Shown: positions 11,322 through 61,985, counted from the stretch's first letter. The stretch is 64,000 nt of DNA from an uncultured Erysipelotrichaceae bacterium (GCA_964418835.1 CAYQNJ010000001.1:52630-116629), one strand, 5' to 3'. The notes: generated by a model from the letters alone, not told the origin. Numbers and translations are program-made.

Positions 11322-13010
11322 ATGATTAAAACCAGAAGAAATAATATAATATCTTATATTTTCTTTATACTTATGATATTATTACAAATTATATTTTTGT
11401 TTAAACAAAATATATTTGTAAATTTTCCTTTTGTAATTAATAATTTACATTTATATCTTACTATTCCTATTACACTTTGGGGTTATTCTTTATTTTATAG
11501 AATTACAGATAAAAAAATAAAGTATCTTTCTTTAATTTACACAATACTAATAATTATTTGGTTATTTATAAAGTTTGGAAGAGATAGAAGAGTTGATGAT
11601 AGTATTTCTTTATTTTTATGGTACTTATATTATATCCCATTATTAATAAACATTTATTTTTTATATGAAATACTTAGATATTCAAATAATTCAAGATTAA
11701 AAACTTCTTTTAATTATTATGTATTAGCATTAACTATTATTCTAATTATGATTGTAATTACGAATAGTCATCATTTTTTAGTATTTAAATTTAAAGATAT
11801 AAATATTCAAAATGATTATACATATGGTTTTATGTATAAAGTAATTGTCATATGGATAATTTTTGTAGGAAGCTTAATACTTTATCACGCTTTTAGAATA
11901 TATAAAAACAGAAATAAAATACCATTGTTATTTATATTTTTAATATTTTTATTATATTTTGTATATAATCGAGGTTATGTTTACAGACTACCATTTTTAT
12001 TTACTGGTGATTTTCCAATCACAACAATAATTTTTATGGTTTATTTGTTGGAGATATGTATAAGGATTAATTTAATACCAGGTAAATATTATTATACTGG
12101 TGTATTTAAAATGGGTAATTTAGATTTATCTATTATTGATGATAAAAATAATATTATTTTTAATACTCCAAATTCTACTGTTTTAAATGATGAGTTTTTT
12201 AATAGTTTAAATAAAAACGTAAAAACCCAAGAATTTTCATTAAGTAATAAAAGTATTATATTTAAGGTAAATAAAATTGATGGTGGATATTCTGTATATA
12301 CAAAAAATGTTCAGACAATAAATGAATTGATGTCTCAAATTAATGATAAATCACTTATTATTAATAGACAAAATAACATTCTTTCTATTGAAGAGGAACT
12401 TTCAAAAAAATACTTGGGTGAAAAAGTAAGTGATAAACTAAAAAATATAGTTGATCAAGTTATTTTTAAAAAATTAGATAACATCAATTATTTTACTGAA
12501 ATGATAACTGGTTCATTAAATAGTAAATATCAAGACTATAGACTTTTATCATATATAAAAATATATGTTGGATATTGTAAGAATAAATCTACATTACTAC
12601 TCAAAGAAGTTAATAAGGAATACATTGCGAGTGATGATTTTAGTATTATTTTACATAATACTATTCAAGATTCTTTTTCTGCAGGGATTCAAGGTCAAAT
12701 ATTTGTGAATATTGAAGAAGAAATAAACATGAAACATGTACAATTATTTTTTGATATTACACAGTTTATATTAGAAAAGTGTATTAGATTTAGTGAAACT
12801 AATGTGTTTATTAGAATTGATAAAGAGAATAATAATTATACTTATTATTCTATAATTGATACTTATGACAAAAAAGGGAATTTTATATTTAAGTTTGATA
12901 ATAGTATAGTAAATTCTATTAATAATTTAGATGGAAATTATAATTTTTTATTAGAAGATAATAATGTTTTAATGAGTGTAAAAGTAAAGGTAAGTAATAA
13001 TCATGAATGA
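11322..13010 (+). CDS. Polytopic membrane protein with a C-terminal degenerate histidine-kinase-like (GHKL) ATPase domain and no H-box
   Basis: ~8 predicted TM helices in the first 250 aa. C-terminal region ...LFFDITQFILEKCIRFSETNVFIRIDKENNNYTYYSIIDTYDKKGN resembles N-box/G1 of HATPase_c, but no HDxxGQ His-box is seen. 8-nt overlap with the downstream kinase gene. Confidence 0.55.
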   Translation: MIKTRRNNIISYIFFILMILLQIIFLFKQNIFVNFPFVINNLHLYLTIPITLWGYSLFYRITDKKIKYLSLIYTILIIIWLFIKFGRDRRVDDSISLFLWYLYYIPLLINIYFLYEILRYSNNSRLKTSFNYYVLALTIILIMIVITNSHHFLVFKFKDINIQNDYTYGFMYKVIVIWIIFVGSLILYHAFRIYKNRNKIPLLFIFLIFLLYFVYNRGYVYRLPFLFTGDFPITTIIFMVYLLEICIRINLIPGKYYYTGVFKMGNLDLSIIDDKNNIIFNTPNSTVLNDEFFNSLNKNVKTQEFSLSNKSIIFKVNKIDGGYSVYTKNVQTINELMSQINDKSLIINRQNNILSIEEELSKKYLGEKVSDKLKNIVDQVIFKKLDNINYFTEMITGSLNSKYQDYRLLSYIKIYVGYCKNKSTLLLKEVNKEYIASDDFSIILHNTIQDSFSAGIQGQIFVNIEEEINMKHVQLFFDITQFILEKCIRFSETNVFIRIDKENNNYTYYSIIDTYDKKGNFIFKFDNSIVNSINNLDGNYNFLLEDNNVLMSVKVKVSNNHE

Positions 13011-14334
13011 TATATATTTATTACATATGGTTATTTCTATGCTTGGAATAAATTTAATTTTGATATTAATACTTATTAATATTCCTTTAATGACTAAAAT
13101 TGATTTTATATTTTTAACTTTAAGAAGTATTGCATTGATAAGTTTTCATATGCTTGTGCTTATGCTCTTTTATGATTTATTTTATCATAATCCATTAACA
13201 TATATACTTTATATATTTGTAGTTCTTATTTTATTTATTTTAATAAATCTAATATATGGTTCTAAAATAATTAAGTTTTATTTAATACTATTTATTATTA
13301 TTTCCTATACAATTAACACCAATTTAATAGATAAATTAATGTTCATAAATATAATAATATTATTATATGAGATTTATGAAATATATGAAATGATTAAAAA
13401 GAGAAATACTTTTATTTCAAGAAACACTATTAAACAAGCTTTTGATACTATGGATGATGGATTATTATTTGTTAATGAGGAATGTATGCCATTACTAATG
13501 AATAATAAAATGATAAATATATTAAATGAGTTTGAATCATTTTATAAATTAGGTAATTCTAGATTAATACATAAAATTATAGAAAATATATCTAATTCTT
13601 TAATAAAGGTTAATGATAAAACATATTCAGTTTTTGTTAGTGAAAGCACTGATAAACATAAAGGCTTTTACTATCAATTTGTTGATGTAAGTGATAGTTA
13701 TAAATTTATTGAACAATTAGAAAATCAAAATCAATTTTTATTGTTAAAACAAAGTGATTTAAAAAACAGTTTAAAGAATATAGAAAAATCAGTAACTGAT
13801 AATGAAGTTTTAAAATTAAGATTATGGATACATGATATTATTGGGCAACGACTATCTATTGTACATACATATATAGAAAACAATTTTTTAAATACTGACA
13901 ATATTAATGAATTAAAAGAAATTTTAAAAAAAATTAAAGGGGATTTAAATTTTGATAGTTACAATATTGATGAAAGATTTAATAGAATAAAAATTACTTA
14001 TGAAGTTGTAAACACAATATTACATCTAAATGGTAGTTTTCCTAATGATAATAAGGTTTCTACAATATTTTTAAATATAATTCGAGAAGCAAGTACAAAT
14101 GCAATAAGACATTCTAGTGCTAAAAATGTATATATTGATATCAAGGAAGACAAAGAAAATTTATATTTAAACATTAAAAATGATGGAAAAGTTAATACAA
14201 AGAATATAGTTGAAGGTGATGGAATTCTAGGAATGAGAAGAGCAATTAAACCTTATGAAGGTGTATTGAACATTACTACTGATCCACTTTTTCAAATTGA
14301 TATTAAATTAAAAAGATCTAATTTAGATCTTTGA
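13003..14334 (+). CDS. Polytopic sensor histidine kinase, HisKA_3 family (DesK/LiaS-like)
   Basis: 4-5 N-terminal TM helices; H-box RLWIHDIIGQRLS; HATPase N-box REASTNAIRHS, G-boxes NDGKV and GDGILGMRRA. Confidence 0.8.
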   Translation: MNDIYLLHMVISMLGINLILILILINIPLMTKIDFIFLTLRSIALISFHMLVLMLFYDLFYHNPLTYILYIFVVLILFILINLIYGSKIIKFYLILFIIISYTINTNLIDKLMFINIIILLYEIYEIYEMIKKRNTFISRNTIKQAFDTMDDGLLFVNEECMPLLMNNKMINILNEFESFYKLGNSRLIHKIIENISNSLIKVNDKTYSVFVSESTDKHKGFYYQFVDVSDSYKFIEQLENQNQFLLLKQSDLKNSLKNIEKSVTDNEVLKLRLWIHDIIGQRLSIVHTYIENNFLNTDNINELKEILKKIKGDLNFDSYNIDERFNRIKITYEVVNTILHLNGSFPNDNKVSTIFLNIIREASTNAIRHSSAKNVYIDIKEDKENLYLNIKNDGKVNTKNIVEGDGILGMRRAIKPYEGVLNITTDPLFQIDIKLKRSNLDL

Positions 14335-14937
14335 GTTTATATATCCATTTGCTAGTGCAAATATTGCAAGTTTTGATATTGAATCATAACCAGTTTTTTG
14401 AAGAATTGTACTTATATAAGCTTTTATTGTTCCTTCACTTAAATATAATTCTTTAGCTATTTCTTTTCGAGATTTTGCTTCACAAATAAGTCTTAGAATA
14501 TCTAGTTCTTTTTGTGTTAGTTGGGCATCATTTGGTAGTTTGGGGATAGTATTGGTTGGATAAATAGAATAACCAGCCATAGTGTTTCTAATACAATTTA
14601 CAAGGCTTGAGAGATCTATATTCTTATATATAAAACTATCTGCTTTTGCAAGTCTTGCTCTTTCAACAAACGTTATTTCCGGCATAGCTGTCATAATTAT
14701 TATTTTAATATGAGGTAGTGCTTCTTTTATTTCTTTTGTTGCATCTAATCCACTAGAATTATTTTCTGTACATATATCCATAAGTACTAAATCTGGTTTT
14801 AGTTTTTGACATGTATGAAGTGCAATATCTGAGTTGCTTATGCCCCCAATTACTTCAAAATCTTCAAAAGTATTAAGATTCATACATAAAGCATCTCTCA
14901 ATATTGTTTGATCTTCTACTATTAATAGTTTAATCAT
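14323..14937 (-). CDS. Response regulator, NarL/LuxR family (REC + HTH_LuxR)
   Basis: REC domain with DLVLMDI phospho-acceptor Asp; C-terminal LuxR HTH LTQKELDILRLICEAKSRKEIAKELYLSEGTIKAY; RBS GGAG on the minus strand. Confidence 0.85.
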   Translation of the reverse strand: MIKLLIVEDQTILRDALCMNLNTFEDFEVIGGISNSDIALHTCQKLKPDLVLMDICTENNSSGLDATKEIKEALPHIKIIIMTAMPEITFVERARLAKADSFIYKNIDLSSLVNCIRNTMAGYSIYPTNTIPKLPNDAQLTQKELDILRLICEAKSRKEIAKELYLSEGTIKAYISTILQKTGYDSISKLAIFALANGYINSKI

Positions 14938-14965
14938 GAATACTCCTTTCGGTTATATATTATGT

Positions 14966-14996
14966 TTGAATATTAGACTTGTGGTAATTGTATAAT
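14966..14996 (+). promoter_or_regulatory. Sigma-A-type promoter of the SPFH/zinc-ribbon operon, in the divergent region shared with the response-regulator gene
   Basis: TTGAAT 14966-14971, 17-nt spacer, TGTATAAT (extended -10) 14989-14996. Confidence 0.5.
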
Positions 14997-15072
14997 TCTA
15001 GTTTTTTATTAATAATTTAATTAGATATTAACATTATCACATATAATCTAATAAAATTCTAGGAGGTATATT

Positions 15073-16278
15073 ATGGGATTAATTAAAGCAGCTTTAGGAG
15101 CATTATCAGGAACAATGGCAGACTCATGGAAAGAGTACTTCTATTGTGATTCTATCGACAGTGATACACTAATTGTAAAAGGTATGAAAAGAGTTAATGG
15201 TAAAAGATCATCTAACATGCATGGTACAGAGAATGTTATAACAAATGGGTCTAAAATTACAGTAAATGAAGGTCAATGTCTACTAATAGTTGATAATGGA
15301 AAAATTGTAGATATTGCGGCTGAATCAGGTGATTATGTTTATGATGCAGCAATGGAACCTAGTATTTTTGATGGTGGACTAGGTGATGCTATTAAAAACA
15401 CTTTTAATCAAGCTTGGAATAGATTTGAGTTTGGTGGAGATGTTTCGAAAGATAATCGAATTTATTATGTTAATACAAAAGAAATAGTTGGTAACAAATA
15501 TGGTACACCAAATGCAGTTCCTTTTAGAGTTATTGATGCTAATATTGGACTTGATGTAGATATATCTATTAGATGTTTTGGTGAGTATTCATATAAAATT
15601 ACTAACCCGATATTATTCTATAAAAACGTGAGTGGTAATGTTACTCAAGACTATAAAAGAGATGAAATTGATAGTCAATTAAAGACTGAGTTAATGACTG
15701 CACTTCAACCAACTTTCGCAAAAATTTCTGCGATGGGAATTAGATATAGTCAACTACCAGGTCACACTAAAGAAATTTCTAAAGCTTTAAATGAAGAGTT
15801 ATCTAGCCAGTGGGCAGAAACTAGGGGAATAGAAATAGCATCATTTGGTATCTCTAGTGTATCAGCTTCTGAAGAAGATGAAAAAATGATTAAACAACTT
15901 CAAAGTTCTGCAGTTAATAGAGATCCACGAATGGCAGCAGCAAATTTAGTTGGTGCTCAAGCACAAGCAATGAGAGATGCTGCAAATAATCCTTCAGGTG
16001 CATTTACTGGTTTTATGGGAATGAATATGGCTAATATGAGTGGCGGTTTTGATGCACAATCACTTTATAATCAACCAACCAATCAACAACAAGTACAACA
16101 AACAGTACAACAAACACAACAATCTAGTGACACTTGGAAGTGTGAATGTGGTCATGATAACACTGGAAAGTTTTGTGGTGAATGTGGTAAACCTAAACCA
16201 TCTCTAAATTGGTCATGTGAATGTGGTCATGAAAATACAGGAAAGTTCTGTAGTAATTGCGGTAAACCAAAAGTATAG
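15073..16278 (+). CDS. SPFH/Band-7 domain protein (Band_7_1, YdjI-like) with Q-rich linker and duplicated C-terminal zinc ribbon
   Basis: N-terminus MGLIKAALGALSGTMADSWKEYF...DSDTLIVKG typical of the Band_7_1 SPFH family; QPTNQQQVQQTVQQTQQ linker; two CxCG...CxxCG ribbons. Confidence 0.75.
   Translation: MGLIKAALGALSGTMADSWKEYFYCDSIDSDTLIVKGMKRVNGKRSSNMHGTENVITNGSKITVNEGQCLLIVDNGKIVDIAAESGDYVYDAAMEPSIFDGGLGDAIKNTFNQAWNRFEFGGDVSKDNRIYYVNTKEIVGNKYGTPNAVPFRVIDANIGLDVDISIRCFGEYSYKITNPILFYKNVSGNVTQDYKRDEIDSQLKTELMTALQPTFAKISAMGIRYSQLPGHTKEISKALNEELSSQWAETRGIEIASFGISSVSASEEDEKMIKQLQSSAVNRDPRMAAANLVGAQAQAMRDAANNPSGAFTGFMGMNMANMSGGFDAQSLYNQPTNQQQVQQTVQQTQQSSDTWKCECGHDNTGKFCGECGKPKPSLNWSCECGHENTGKFCSNCGKPKV
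16135..16275 (+). repeat. Tandem ~66-nt direct repeat encoding two zinc-ribbon modules
   Basis: WKCECGHDNTGKFCGECGKPKP and WSCECGHENTGKFCSNCGKPKV encoded by two adjacent ~75% identical DNA units. Confidence 0.8.
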
Positions 16279-16292
16279 ATTGGAGAACAATT

Positions 16293-17381
16293 ATGAGTGA
16301 ATTTGAAGAAGTAATTAGCACTACTAGAAATGAAACAGACAAAAGATGTACACAATGTGGAGGTGTGATGAATTTTGATCCTTCAAATGGTAATCTAACT
16401 TGTCCATATTGTGGTCATACTCAAATTGTAGAAAACTTGGAGTCTAGTGCTGTAGAAATTGATTTAAAAGAAGCTGAAGATTTAGGGAATCATGATTGGG
16501 GTCTTGAAACAAAAACAGTAATATGTAAAAACTGTAGTGCACAAAGTATTTATGATGCTTTAGAAATAGCTAATGTTTGTCCATATTGTGGAAGTAATCA
16601 TGTTATGGAAGAAAAGGGAGTAAAAACTTTGGCTCCTGGTGGTGTAGTTATATTTGAGGTTACTGCAAAAGAGGCTGGGGATAAGTTTAGTAAATGGCTA
16701 AGTAAGAAATGGTTTTGTCCAACTCCTGCAAAACAATCAGCAAAACCTGAAAAATTTAAAGGTGTTTATTTGCCTAATTGGACATTTGATACAAATACTA
16801 ACAGTTTTTATATAGGTGAAGCTGGGGTTGTTAAAACTAGAAAGAAAGCCGATGGTAAAACAGAAAGCTATACTCAATATCATCATGTCAATGGTAGATA
16901 CAATTATGTATTCGATGACTTTATTGAAAGTGGTTCTAATAGAATTAATAAAGATACTTTAAAACAAATTGAACCTTTTGATACAGAGAATAATAAAAGT
17001 TATAAACCAGAGTATATAGCAGGTTTTTCAGCTGAAAGGTATTCTATTGGATTAGAAGATGCTTGGGAGTCTGCTGGCAAAAGAATGAAAGATAAGTTAA
17101 AAACAGATATTGAATTAAAGATTAAATCTAATGAAAGAGCTTCTTATGTTAGAGGTTTAACAGTAGAGACTAAATTCAATGATGTAAAATTTAAATATCT
17201 GTTATTACCAATTTGGATTTCATCATTTGTATTTAATGGTAAAACATATGAGTTTATGGTAAATGGACAAACTGGAAAGGTAAGTGGTACATCTCCAATA
17301 GATAAAGTTAAAGTAGCAATTGTTGTAATAATTGTAATTGCTGTAATTGTTGGAATTATCTACTTTGTAAATTATCGATGA
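16293..17381 (+). CDS. Zinc-ribbon membrane protein (two CxxC...CxxC ribbons, central domain, C-terminal TM anchor); YdjG-like
   Basis: CTQCG...CPYCG and CKNCS...CPYCG pairs; C-terminal TM VKVAIVVIIVIAVIVGIIYF; stop overlaps the next start (ATGA). Confidence 0.65.
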   Translation: MSEFEEVISTTRNETDKRCTQCGGVMNFDPSNGNLTCPYCGHTQIVENLESSAVEIDLKEAEDLGNHDWGLETKTVICKNCSAQSIYDALEIANVCPYCGSNHVMEEKGVKTLAPGGVVIFEVTAKEAGDKFSKWLSKKWFCPTPAKQSAKPEKFKGVYLPNWTFDTNTNSFYIGEAGVVKTRKKADGKTESYTQYHHVNGRYNYVFDDFIESGSNRINKDTLKQIEPFDTENNKSYKPEYIAGFSAERYSIGLEDAWESAGKRMKDKLKTDIELKIKSNERASYVRGLTVETKFNDVKFKYLLLPIWISSFVFNGKTYEFMVNGQTGKVSGTSPIDKVKVAIVVIIVIAVIVGIIYFVNYR

Positions 17382-18358
17382 TTAAATTATTACTAATATT
17401 AATATTGATTATATCTGGATGTGGTAATAAAAAAGATCCACCAATTGACATAGAAGAGACTCCTACACCAATTATTGAAAATATAGAAACTGAAGAGATA
17501 GATGAAACTATTATTATTGATTTTTTAGGATATTCTTCTAATTATCAAAATAAATTAGATCAATATTTATTTAAGATGAATTATACAGCTATTGATGAGT
17601 TAGATATGGGTGGTGATGAGGTTTATTTAATAGACCCAGTTAAAAATATTGATATGGAAATTAATTGGATTAATTATGATGAAAATAACGAAGAATCATA
17701 TGCATTTTTTGCACTAATTCAACAAGATGAACCATTTATACTAATATGTAATGAAAGTGATATAAGACCAAATAATAAAATAATAGTTAATAATACTCAA
17801 GAATTTTCTCTACAAATTAGTTTAGAAAATGGAGAGTTAATTCAACCAGATAAAACTGAAACAGTTGACTGGGGATTTAAAGAACGTGAATTAAAAGATT
17901 CATTAGTGATATTTGATGAAATTATTTCTGCTACATTTGATATATTATTTCATAAATATTCTTTACAGATGCCTGAAGCTGTGGAGTTAATTACTCTAGT
18001 ATCTATGTATTTTGATCCAGCGTATGTAAATGGAGAAATAGAAATTGTAGATGGTGTGACATACAAGATACCAATTGATGTAATAGAAGGATGGACAATA
18101 GTTTTATTTGATGATTATACAGGGGAGTTACCAAATGAATTTGATTCAAATATATATGAGGTAAATTATAAAACTATTAATAGAATTAATGATTATGAAC
18201 TTTTAGAAATAAAAGAAATGGGGGAATTTATAGATTTACTCTATAAAAGAATAGATATTGAAACAGGTTATGAAGAGTTATTTGTAGTTAGTTTGATTAA
18301 AAGTAATACATCAAGTTTAAATTATAGAATATTTGATGTGATAATAAGCGTAGGATAA
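17378..18358 (+). CDS. Acidic lipoprotein of unknown function
   Basis: Signal peptide with lipobox LIISGC; Glu/Asp/Ile-rich 326-aa protein; translationally coupled to the upstream gene. Confidence 0.6.
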   Translation: MIKLLLILILIISGCGNKKDPPIDIEETPTPIIENIETEEIDETIIIDFLGYSSNYQNKLDQYLFKMNYTAIDELDMGGDEVYLIDPVKNIDMEINWINYDENNEESYAFFALIQQDEPFILICNESDIRPNNKIIVNNTQEFSLQISLENGELIQPDKTETVDWGFKERELKDSLVIFDEIISATFDILFHKYSLQMPEAVELITLVSMYFDPAYVNGEIEIVDGVTYKIPIDVIEGWTIVLFDDYTGELPNEFDSNIYEVNYKTINRINDYELLEIKEMGEFIDLLYKRIDIETGYEELFVVSLIKSNTSSLNYRIFDVIISVG

Positions 18359-18362
18359 AAAA

Positions 18363-18390
18363 AGGCTCACTATATAAGTGAGTCTTTCAT
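18363..18390. terminator. Bidirectional terminator between the lipoprotein gene and rpsD
   Basis: aggctcact-tatataa-gtgagtct hairpin flanked by A/T runs on both strands. Confidence 0.7.
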
Positions 18391-28547: not shown

Positions 28548-28775
28548 TGACTTTAAAGATAAATTTTAATATTATATTAATGTACGTTGAAACAAAGTAG
28601 TAGGTAACTAAAGTTATATAGAGAGTCAAGGGTTGGTGAAACTTGATTAATTATGTTATTGAACTTGTTGTGGAGTAATGTAATTCCTGCTTTAAAGGAT
28701 TTTGAGTGCATGTTTAACATGAACTAAGGTGGTACCGCGTAATTATTACGTCCTTAGAATGGACGTTTTTTATTT
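28548..28775 (+). promoter_or_regulatory. Promoter plus T-box leader of leuS (candidate CUU Leu specifier)
   Basis: TTGACT-17-TATTAT promoter; Stem I start GUUGAAACAAAGUAGUAGG; T-box gaactaaggtggtaccgcg 28721-28739; terminator acgtcc...ggacgt + T-run 28749-28775. Confidence 0.8.
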
Positions 28776-35191: not shown

Positions 35192-35264
35192 TTTAGTAAA
35201 TTTATTAAAGTTTATATACAGTTTTTTAAATTTGAGGTAATATAGTAATGGATTAAGATAACCT

Positions 35265-35455
35265 TAACTTGTATAGGTGTCAATTTAATGGCTGACATGT
35301 TTCTACCCACTTGCCTAAAGTGGACTACAAGTAAACCTTTTATCGTGAAGGTTTATACCTTAAGTTAGAAGATGATAGTTAAATCATATCTATTTAAGTG
35401 TTCGTGTCTTTTATTAAATTTTGACATATCTTGGATATGGTTTTTTTATTTTAAT
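35265..35455 (+). promoter_or_regulatory. Purine (guanine-type) riboswitch with terminator expression platform
   Basis: P1 ACUUGUA/UACAAGU, conserved J2-3 GUUUCUACC, P3 CCACU...AGUGG, C at the discriminator position; terminator catatc-ttg-gatatg + T7 just before the purC RBS. Confidence 0.8.
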
Positions 35456-47065: not shown

Positions 47066-47310
47066 TGACTTTATTTACTTGGTTATTTATAATTTAAAGG
47101 CGTTGATTAGAAATAGTACCATTAAAAGATATATAGAAAGACTTTGGCTGATGTAAAAAGTTTATCAATTATTGGGAATACACCTATGAGCATTTTATTG
47201 AAAAGATAAAACGTATACCCACGTTATAGGGATTTAAGTGCATTATTTTGATGAACTAAGGTGGTACCACGTTAAGCGTCCTTAGAATAAGGATGCTTTT
47301 TTATTAGAAA
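47066..47310 (+). promoter_or_regulatory. Promoter plus T-box leader of tyrS (specifier UAC)
   Basis: TTGACT-17-TATAAT; Stem I GUUGAUUAGAAAUAGUACC; specifier loop GGGAA-UAC-A at 47176-47182; T-box gaactaaggtggtaccacg 47253-47271; terminator gcgtcctta...taaggatgc + T6. Confidence 0.85.
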
Positions 47311-61814: not shown

Positions 61815-61985
61815 TATTTTAGAACACTTCAGGACAGGGTGAAATTCCCTACCGGCGGTATACCCCGCGAACCTATTTTGGTTGAACTGGTTAGATTCCA
61901 GTGGCGACAGTAAAGTCTGGATGAAAGAAGAGATTCTTTTTTGTATATGTTCTGGAAGGTTTGTTTATAAACCTTTTTTAATTGA
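61815..61985 (+). promoter_or_regulatory. FMN riboswitch (RFN element) with terminator
   Basis: AGGACAGGGUGAAAUUCCCUACCGGCGGUA...CCCGCGA...GGUUAGAUUCCAGUGGCGACAGUAAAGUCUGGAUGAAAGAAG matches RFN conserved blocks; terminator aaggtttg...taaacctt + T6 at ~61957-61985. Confidence 0.85.

Follow-up and report, generated by a model that had tools for sequence, protein, structure and literature searches.

An SPFH/SamG-type operon beside a two-component system in an uncultured Erysipelotrichaceae bacterium: a candidate PspA-independent membrane-stress module

Our analysis identifies a three-gene operon at positions 15073-18358 of a 64,000-nucleotide stretch of DNA from an uncultured gut Erysipelotrichaceae bacterium (GCA_964418835.1, CAYQNJ010000001.1:52630-116629; the whole stretch is called the window below) as a lineage-specific version of the SamI/SamG (YdjI/YdjG) module of Bacillus, and not as a new class of system. 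The operon encodes, in this order, a soluble SPFH protein of the Band_7_1 type, a membrane-anchored zinc-ribbon protein of the SamG/YdjG family (the anchor protein) and an acidic lipoprotein. It adjoins genes for a sensor histidine kinase, a response regulator and a protein with about seven transmembrane (TM) segments, here called the 7TM protein (Table 1). Two parts are specific to the lineage, the lipoprotein and the sensor linkage, whereas the SPFH gene followed by the anchor gene constitutes a widespread module which is mostly independent of PspA within its own locus. We consider it reasonably probable (at roughly 60%) that the locus as a whole is a sensor-controlled, PspA-independent membrane-stress module, a function that we infer by analogy.

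The three genes are co-directional and closely spaced, and open reading frame (ORF) prediction placed them exactly where the original prediction, made from the DNA sequence without knowledge of its origin, had described three translationally coupled genes. The SPFH gene is preceded by an AGGAGG ribosome-binding site and separated from the anchor gene by 14 bp. Between the anchor gene and the lipoprotein gene there is a 4-bp overlap (ATGA), which is found in three species including the one studied here. A hairpin with an 11-bp stem and a T-run on both strands follows 3' of the lipoprotein gene. That no PspA is encoded nearby, as also stated in the original prediction, holds for the window in its full length: tblastn with queries including Bacillus PspA returned neither a PspA nor a TPM homolog in the 64 kb at E<=10.

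Judged from its sequence, the first gene product is a Band_7_1 SPFH protein of the SamI/YdjI family that falls into a different subfamily from YdjI itself. It matches the Pfam family Band_7_1 (PF13421) with an E value of 7.9e-23 and 81.6 bits (cut-off 24), and the classical Band_7 model reaches an E value of 0.004, which is under the cut-off of that model. The protein possesses no hydrophobic segment and is thus predicted to be soluble. Its C-terminal part consists of a Q-rich linker and two CxC...CxxC zinc ribbons, which align with the ribbon of Bacillus YdjI; family, linker and ribbons had all been anticipated correctly. Both ribbons are encoded by a 64-nt tandem duplication (16134-16272; copies 81% identical and 75 nt apart). 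Relatives of the SPFH protein were seen to carry one to three C-terminal ribbons. Since the ribbons of the window protein are a tandem duplication and the relatives differ in number, ribbon number appears to vary by local duplication.

In BLASTP the SPFH protein aligned with Bacillus YdjI over 350 aa at 23% identity (E 7e-18) with the same domain order; to the SPFH protein of Enterococcus gallinarum it is 41% identical over the full length (E 1.6e-82). An alignment of ten SPFH partners defines two subfamilies. One comprises the window protein, the protein of E. gallinarum and the Lachnospiraceae-type proteins, which carry two or three zinc ribbons and have in common a basic insertion, ~13 residues long, as well as an N-terminus of the form MGLIKA..ADxWxEYFYCD. 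The other, without these traits, comprises Bacillus YdjI together with the proteins of Vibrio, Paracoccus and Tsukamurella. With an identity of 23-24% and a place in the other subfamily, the window protein is not a close ortholog of B. subtilis YdjI. The earlier statement that its N-terminus is as in YdjI has to be withdrawn: YdjI begins with MSFFRNQL, and the window protein is of the Enterococcus/Lachnospiraceae type. Sequence searches against solved structures gave no relative of the SPFH protein. In proteobacterial and actinobacterial SPFH partners (L011 4909-6000, L012 4851-5999, L013 4697-5845) the zinc ribbon is absent, and the C-terminus is formed by a conserved segment of ~50 residues in which the pattern VW..G...W recurs. 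SPFH partners thus appear to have an interchangeable C-terminal module.

Sequence comparison identifies the second gene product as a full-length SamG/YdjG homolog. It aligns with Bacillus YdjG at 29% identity over 331 aa (E 7e-44) with residues 18-342 covered, in full agreement with its earlier description as a YdjG-like protein with four CxxC pairs and a C-terminal TM segment. The four pairs (C19/C22/C37/C40 and C78/C81/C96/C99) make up two N-terminal zinc ribbons. Their eight cysteines are invariant or nearly so in alignments of 13 and 48 sequences, which span Bacillota, Pseudomonadota and Actinomycetota, and a C-proximal NGQTGKV motif is invariant across these alignments. The single TM segment is located at the C-terminus (residues 341-359, hydropathy 3.45) with about three residues beyond the membrane, and the protein is therefore predicted to be tail-anchored and essentially cytoplasmic. 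A confident AlphaFold2 model based on 48 sequences (predicted local distance difference test score, pLDDT, 86; predicted template modeling score, pTM, 0.80) displays, besides the two ribbons and a terminal helix (338-361), an elongated alpha/beta domain whose strands are very long. The central domain of SamG/YdjG has been described as related to YpeB (PepSY/NTF2-like) by Ravi et al. 2024 (PMC11237479). The anchor family is large, with 2226 matches at E<=0.001, and many members from Lachnospiraceae are ~50% identical to the window protein. Among solved structures the family matched only generic zinc ribbons, and a comparison of the anchor protein with PHROGs likewise gave zinc-ribbon matches only.

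The third gene product had been described as a highly acidic lipoprotein unrelated to YdjH, and both parts of this description are well founded. It has a lipobox (IISGC, Cys15), an isoelectric point of 4.05 and 65 acidic (D+E) versus 21 basic (K+R) residues. BLASTP found no similarity to YdjH, phmmer searches with YdjH and with the Enterococcus TPM protein found no match in the window, and the lipoprotein lacks the arrangement that defines SamH/YdjH, in which a TPM domain precedes a TM segment and a Gly-rich tail. It has no match in Pfam (even at E 10), NCBIfam, PADLOC or PHROGs. Full-length relatives were found in the two nearest species only, with identities of 55% and 36%. The corresponding values in the same two species are 73% and 66% for the anchor protein and 89% and 74% for the SPFH protein, and hence the lipoprotein evolves at a much higher rate than the two neighbouring proteins. 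In an exhaustive profile search about 100 cluster representatives, mostly lipoproteins of 160-200 aa, were found to share only its N-domain (residues ~45-160; window positions 17510-17860). The domain is marked by the motifs FLGY, GDExYLIxP, PFxLxCNxSDIxPN and FSPxxSLxDG, and none of the ~100 representatives belongs to any Pfam family. The genomic context of one such relative was inspected (L098) and is unrelated to SPFH. A hidden Markov model of the N-domain found no copies outside close relatives in the 80 loci of the survey described below. A structure model from a two-sequence alignment reached a pLDDT of only 32.

For a survey of gene neighbourhoods, metagenome contigs were scanned with the anchor-family alignment and the best 80 loci were kept, so that the sample is biased toward close relatives. 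The ORFs of these loci were annotated by phmmer with reference proteins, and counts were made on the 55 loci whose upstream sequence exceeds 1.3 kb. An SPFH gene lies directly upstream of the anchor gene on the same strand in 31 of the 55 loci (gaps from -4 to 226 bp) and within 6 kb of it in 39. PspA is encoded near the anchor gene in four (L075, L078, L085, L093), which are among the loci most distant from the window anchor protein (33-39% identity), and a TPM protein in none of the 55. Outside the metagenome sample, tblastn against plasmid and chromid records found the SPFH gene followed by a YdjG-like gene in E. gallinarum, Vibrio coralliilyticus, Paracoccus ferrooxidans and Tsukamurella tyrosinosolvens; these four annotated genomes represent three phyla, and pspA is not nearby in any of them. 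The original prediction had regarded the inverted gene order and the lack of PspA as peculiarities of the locus. Given the surveyed loci and the four genomes, the SPFH-first order without pspA is instead the common state, and it is the Bacillus operon that appears less typical. The literature on PF13421, Band_7_1 and COG4260 yielded no study of a PspA-free SPFH/anchor pair.

The third gene varies between loci. Many Lachnospiraceae-type loci encode at this position a protein of ~254 aa that has a TM segment at its N-terminus and a zinc ribbon at its C-terminus (e.g. L027 7168-7932 and L005 9182-9943). In Lachnospiraceae-type loci the ~254-aa gene is followed by a gene for 745 aa, the N-terminus of which looks, by eye, like a UvrD/PcrA helicase.

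The operon and the adjacent sensor genes behave as one unit. In a related Erysipelotrichaceae genome (S4 82% identical) none of the six genes is present and only 161 bp separate ruvB from rpsD; synteny is retained on both sides (PolC-L21-Prp-L27-Obg-RuvA-RuvB and rpsD-EzrA-IscS-ThiI). The 7.1-kb block 11322-18358 has thus been gained or lost as one piece. In a sister species the block region is fully syntenic with the window. A more distant relative (L009, anchor protein 67% identical) has kept the kinase, regulator, SPFH, anchor and lipoprotein genes together next to a different downstream flank. The same sensor trio recurs in a locus of an unrelated lineage with clearly different DNA composition (L028, anchor protein 51% identical). 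Genes for a homolog of the 7TM protein (E 1e-16), one of the kinase (E 2e-25) and one of the regulator (E 1e-48) stand there ahead of the genes for an anchor protein, an SPFH protein and a small DUF1307 lipoprotein, all on one strand and in an order unlike that of the window. The proposal that positions 11.3-18.4 kb belong together is supported by these three observations, namely the absence of the block between ruvB and rpsD, its retention with a changed flank and the recurrence of the trio. Neither terminal repeats nor mobility genes were found at the edges of the block. The G+C content of the window is ~27% overall, and it is 19.4% at 12001-14000 (7TM-protein and kinase genes) compared to 26-30% on both sides. 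Ribosomal protein S4 encoded in the window is 93% identical to proteins labelled as coming from an Erysipelotrichaceae MAG, with Solobacterium, Anaerorhabdus and Bulleidia as the next named relatives, which places the host among uncultured Erysipelotrichaceae.

In two further loci (L020 509-7095 and L052 3-7107) the anchor gene lies directly 3' of a Bce-like gene set, which encodes an ATP-binding cassette (ABC) ATPase and a 795-aa FtsX-type permease along with an OmpR-type regulator and a HisKA kinase. Located 3 kb downstream are a Band_7_1 gene and then a DUF5684 gene. The Bce-like set is a second kind of envelope-stress sensor adjoining the YdjG-like family.

The kinase has N-terminal TM segments and no large extracellular domain. 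Its H-box reads WIHDIIGQRLS (HDxxGQxLS pattern), its best relative among solved structures is B. subtilis DesK (E 1e-7), followed by VraS and DevS, and NCBIfam gives partial matches to UhpB/NarQ/NarX/MctS. Pfam HATPase_c is matched weakly and below the cut-off (E 1.3e-4), and Pfam HisKA_3 was not detected. Of the HisKA_3/NarL sensing unit that had been proposed as the neighbour of the operon, the NarL-type regulator is secure, with a Response_reg (E 9e-18) and a GerE domain (E 5e-13) in Pfam; the HisKA_3 label is not returned by Pfam, and the class of the kinase rests on the H-box, the DesK match and the partial NCBIfam matches. Position and orientation of the regulator gene are kept in three related species. 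The kinase gene (+) and the regulator gene (-) overlap by 12 nt at their 3' ends (14323-14334), an unusual layout for a two-component pair; in the sister species (L099) the two genes are 3 nt apart.

The 7TM protein, whose gene overlaps the kinase gene by 8 bp, consists of ~7 N-terminal TM segments and a C-terminal domain of ~300 aa. Neither the protein as a whole (in Pfam) nor the C-terminal domain (in the databases searched) has a match. Among its orthologs, that of the sister species matches HisKA_7TM weakly (E 4e-5) and that of L028 above the Pfam cut-off (E 3e-9). The 7TM protein resembles an accessory sensor subunit, though of no recognised type. That its gene might be a decayed duplicate of the kinase gene was considered and rejected, the two proteins having no similarity to each other. 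The homolog in L028 (175-2622, 815 aa) carries an additional N-terminal domain of ~300 aa behind a signal-like sequence.

The spacer between the regulator and SPFH genes contains conserved blocks across three species, with a mean column identity of 85%, and a TATAAT at 15042-15047. The clearest of these blocks, TAGACTTNNGGTWAT, shows no enrichment across the window (6 matches vs 6.5 expected), short inverted repeats in this AT-rich spacer are indistinguishable from chance, and no motif common to the spacer and the upstream region of L028 is evident.

Table 1. Features of the six-gene block and its right edge (positions counted from the first nucleotide of the window).
Feature	Position	Strand	Remark
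7TM protein, 562 aa	11322..13010	+	first gene of the six-gene block
Sensor histidine kinase, 443 aa, DesK/LiaS-like	13003..14334	+	
NarL/LuxR-type response regulator, 204 aa	14323..14937	-	convergent with the kinase gene, divergent from the SPFH operon
Divergent intergenic region, 135 bp	14938..15072		between regulator gene and SPFH gene; probably holds both divergent promoters
Band_7_1 SPFH protein (SamI/YdjI family), 401 aa, cytoplasmic	15073..16278	+	
Tail-anchored SamG/YdjG-family protein, 362 aa	16293..17381	+	
Acidic lipoprotein, 326 aa, lineage-specific	17378..18358	+	
Terminator-like hairpin, bidirectional	18361..18387		between the lipoprotein gene and convergent rpsD; right edge of the block

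Four known systems invite comparison. The pspA-ydjGHI (pspA-samGHI) operon of B. subtilis was recovered from genome contigs using a published ydjG primer. It shares with the window locus a Band_7_1 SPFH protein with a low-complexity linker, a C-terminal ribbon and no TM segment, an anchor protein in which two ribbons and an alpha/beta domain precede a C-terminal TM segment (the YdjG/SamG architecture), and the adjacency and common direction of the two genes. In contrast to the Bacillus operon, the window locus has neither pspA nor a TPM-domain ydjH, the SPFH gene comes first and a lipoprotein gene comes third; its SPFH protein differs from YdjI in the MGLIKA... N-terminus, the basic insertion and the second ribbon. 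The regulatory context differs as well, with a two-component system adjoining the window operon and a sigma-W promoter driving that of Bacillus. The second system is an operon of E. gallinarum (NZ_CP116511.1, PML87_RS12925-12935), which is SPFH-first, belongs to the same SPFH subfamily, lacks pspA and has a YdjG-like second gene overlapping the third. Its third gene, unlike that of the window, encodes a TPM-domain (YdjH-like) protein, and no two-component system is adjacent.

The likeness to LiaFSR-LiaIH is one of layout only: genes for a putative intramembrane-sensing kinase of the HisKA_3 type and a NarL-type regulator stand beside genes for an anchor and a soluble scaffold. In the window, however, the scaffold is an SPFH protein and not the PspA homolog LiaH, its anchor and LiaI are unrelated, a LiaF gene was not seen, and an extra 7TM protein precedes the kinase. 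With SPFH-NfeD pairs (e.g. QmcA-YbbJ) and HflK/C the locus has in common that an SPFH scaffold is encoded beside a dedicated membrane partner, but here the scaffold is soluble and of the Band_7_1 type, and the partner is a tail-anchored zinc-ribbon protein and neither NfeD nor FtsH.

These comparisons suggest how the locus may work. In B. subtilis, YdjG and YdjH are both needed to bring the soluble YdjI, and through YdjI also PspA, to the membrane (PMC8581546). By analogy, the tail-anchored protein of the window would most likely tether the SPFH protein to the cytoplasmic side of the membrane, the role that YdjG shares with YdjH. The kinase would most likely sense membrane perturbation, following a Lia-like logic. 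With input from this DesK-like kinase and from the 7TM protein, the regulator would then activate the operon from the 135-bp region between the two divergent genes, and the SPFH assembly, once anchored, would stabilise or organise the stressed membrane. The lipoprotein, co-translated with the anchor protein, may make an extracytoplasmic contribution or may be a passenger; it occupies the slot that is taken by a TPM-domain protein in Bacillus and Enterococcus and by the TM plus zinc-ribbon protein in Lachnospiraceae. A more far-reaching version of this scheme, which we put forward tentatively and consider rather doubtful in its entirety, would have the SPFH/SamG-like pair act as an autonomous PspA-independent effector across phyla, and serve here as the dedicated output of the 7TM/DesK-like/NarL-type sensor; its interchangeable third gene would tune which signals outside the membrane are sensed. 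If true, this would amount to a Lia-like circuit with an SPFH scaffold in place of an ESCRT-III protein.

Several points weigh against the reading of the locus as a sensor-controlled, PspA-independent membrane-stress module. The membrane-stress or membrane-fluidity function is purely an argument from analogy, and a PspA or LiaH encoded elsewhere in the genome may be the true effector; a TPM protein, too, may be encoded outside the window. The sensor link was seen in few of the 80 surveyed loci, most pairs being without a two-component system nearby. No regulator-binding motif was found in the spacer, nor one shared with L028. The lipoprotein has no obvious way of contacting cytoplasmic partners other than via the single TM helix of the anchor protein, and its gene may be a passenger. 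For about 30% of the anchor genes the neighbours are unrelated housekeeping genes and SPFH genes are absent from the surrounding 6 kb, so that SPFH and anchor are not obligatorily linked in cis. Another scaffold partner for these SPFH-less anchor genes was considered and rejected, the neighbours being the housekeeping genes just mentioned.

The doubt about PspA can be sharpened into an explanation of its own, according to which the locus still belongs to a Psp system and the SPFH and anchor proteins recruit a PspA/LiaH-type ESCRT-III protein encoded elsewhere, as in B. subtilis. In its favour, the membrane foci of PspA require YdjI in B. subtilis (PMC8581546); pspA does stand beside the pair in four surveyed loci, and for abbreviated band-7 operons an action together with PspA from elsewhere in the genome has been suggested (Ravi et al., PMC11237479). 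We nevertheless regard it as unlikely, given that no PspA homolog is encoded in the 64-kb window, that 51 of the 55 related loci are without PspA and that the window SPFH protein belongs to a different subfamily from YdjI. Even in Bacillus the phenotype of SamI is not tied to PspA: loss of SamI leads to a PspA-independent chronic stress state that is suppressed by removal of SamH, SamI acting as a restraint on SamGH signalling (bioRxiv 10.64898/2026.02.06.704340).

A looser arrangement, in which the pair is a constitutive housekeeping scaffold that a single insertion event happened to place beside the two-component system and the lipoprotein gene without functional coupling, would account for the scarcity of two-component systems beside other pairs, for the variable third genes and for the lack of a regulatory motif in the spacer; the standalone relatives of the lipoprotein N-domain, in the one context inspected, are not linked to SPFH either. 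Such an accident fits poorly, however, with six genes that are present or absent as one block and stay together despite a change of flank, with the recurrence of this particular sensor trio beside the pair in a different lineage, where the genes are ordered differently, and with a 4-bp anchor/lipoprotein overlap that is kept in three species while the lipoprotein drifts to 36-55% identity. We therefore rate mere coincidence as quite improbable. Even less can be said for a defence or conflict island, for example one causing abortive infection via an SPFH membrane protein, which we consider most improbable by far. The varying presence of the block between related genomes would be in line with it, as would the location of a pair ~3 kb from a TIR-domain gene in a Vibrio plasmid; but none of the three proteins has a PADLOC match, the SPFH protein and the lipoprotein have none in PHROGs, the block is free of flanking repeats and mobility genes, the pair is ~50% identical across Bacillota in ordinary chromosomal contexts, and envelope-stress phenotypes are known for the Bacillus homologs. 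A sensor-controlled, PspA-independent membrane-stress module is thus the reading that we prefer.

The pair is normally found without pspA nearby, usually with the SPFH gene first and with a variable third gene, and this raises the question of the role of the pair itself; the PspA-independence of the SamI phenotype in Bacillus poses the same question. If the regulator controls the operon, the signal of the kinase would indicate which stress SPFH/SamG modules respond to. What the locus offers in practice is a testable hypothesis in common gut Bacillota.

As to the remainder of the window, no tRNA genes were found in the 64 kb. Five RNA elements score above the Rfam gathering thresholds, all of them at a distance from 15073-18358: three T-box leaders (233-442, 28578-28758 and 47094-47286), a purine riboswitch (35249-35347) and a flavin mononucleotide (FMN) riboswitch (61821-61936).

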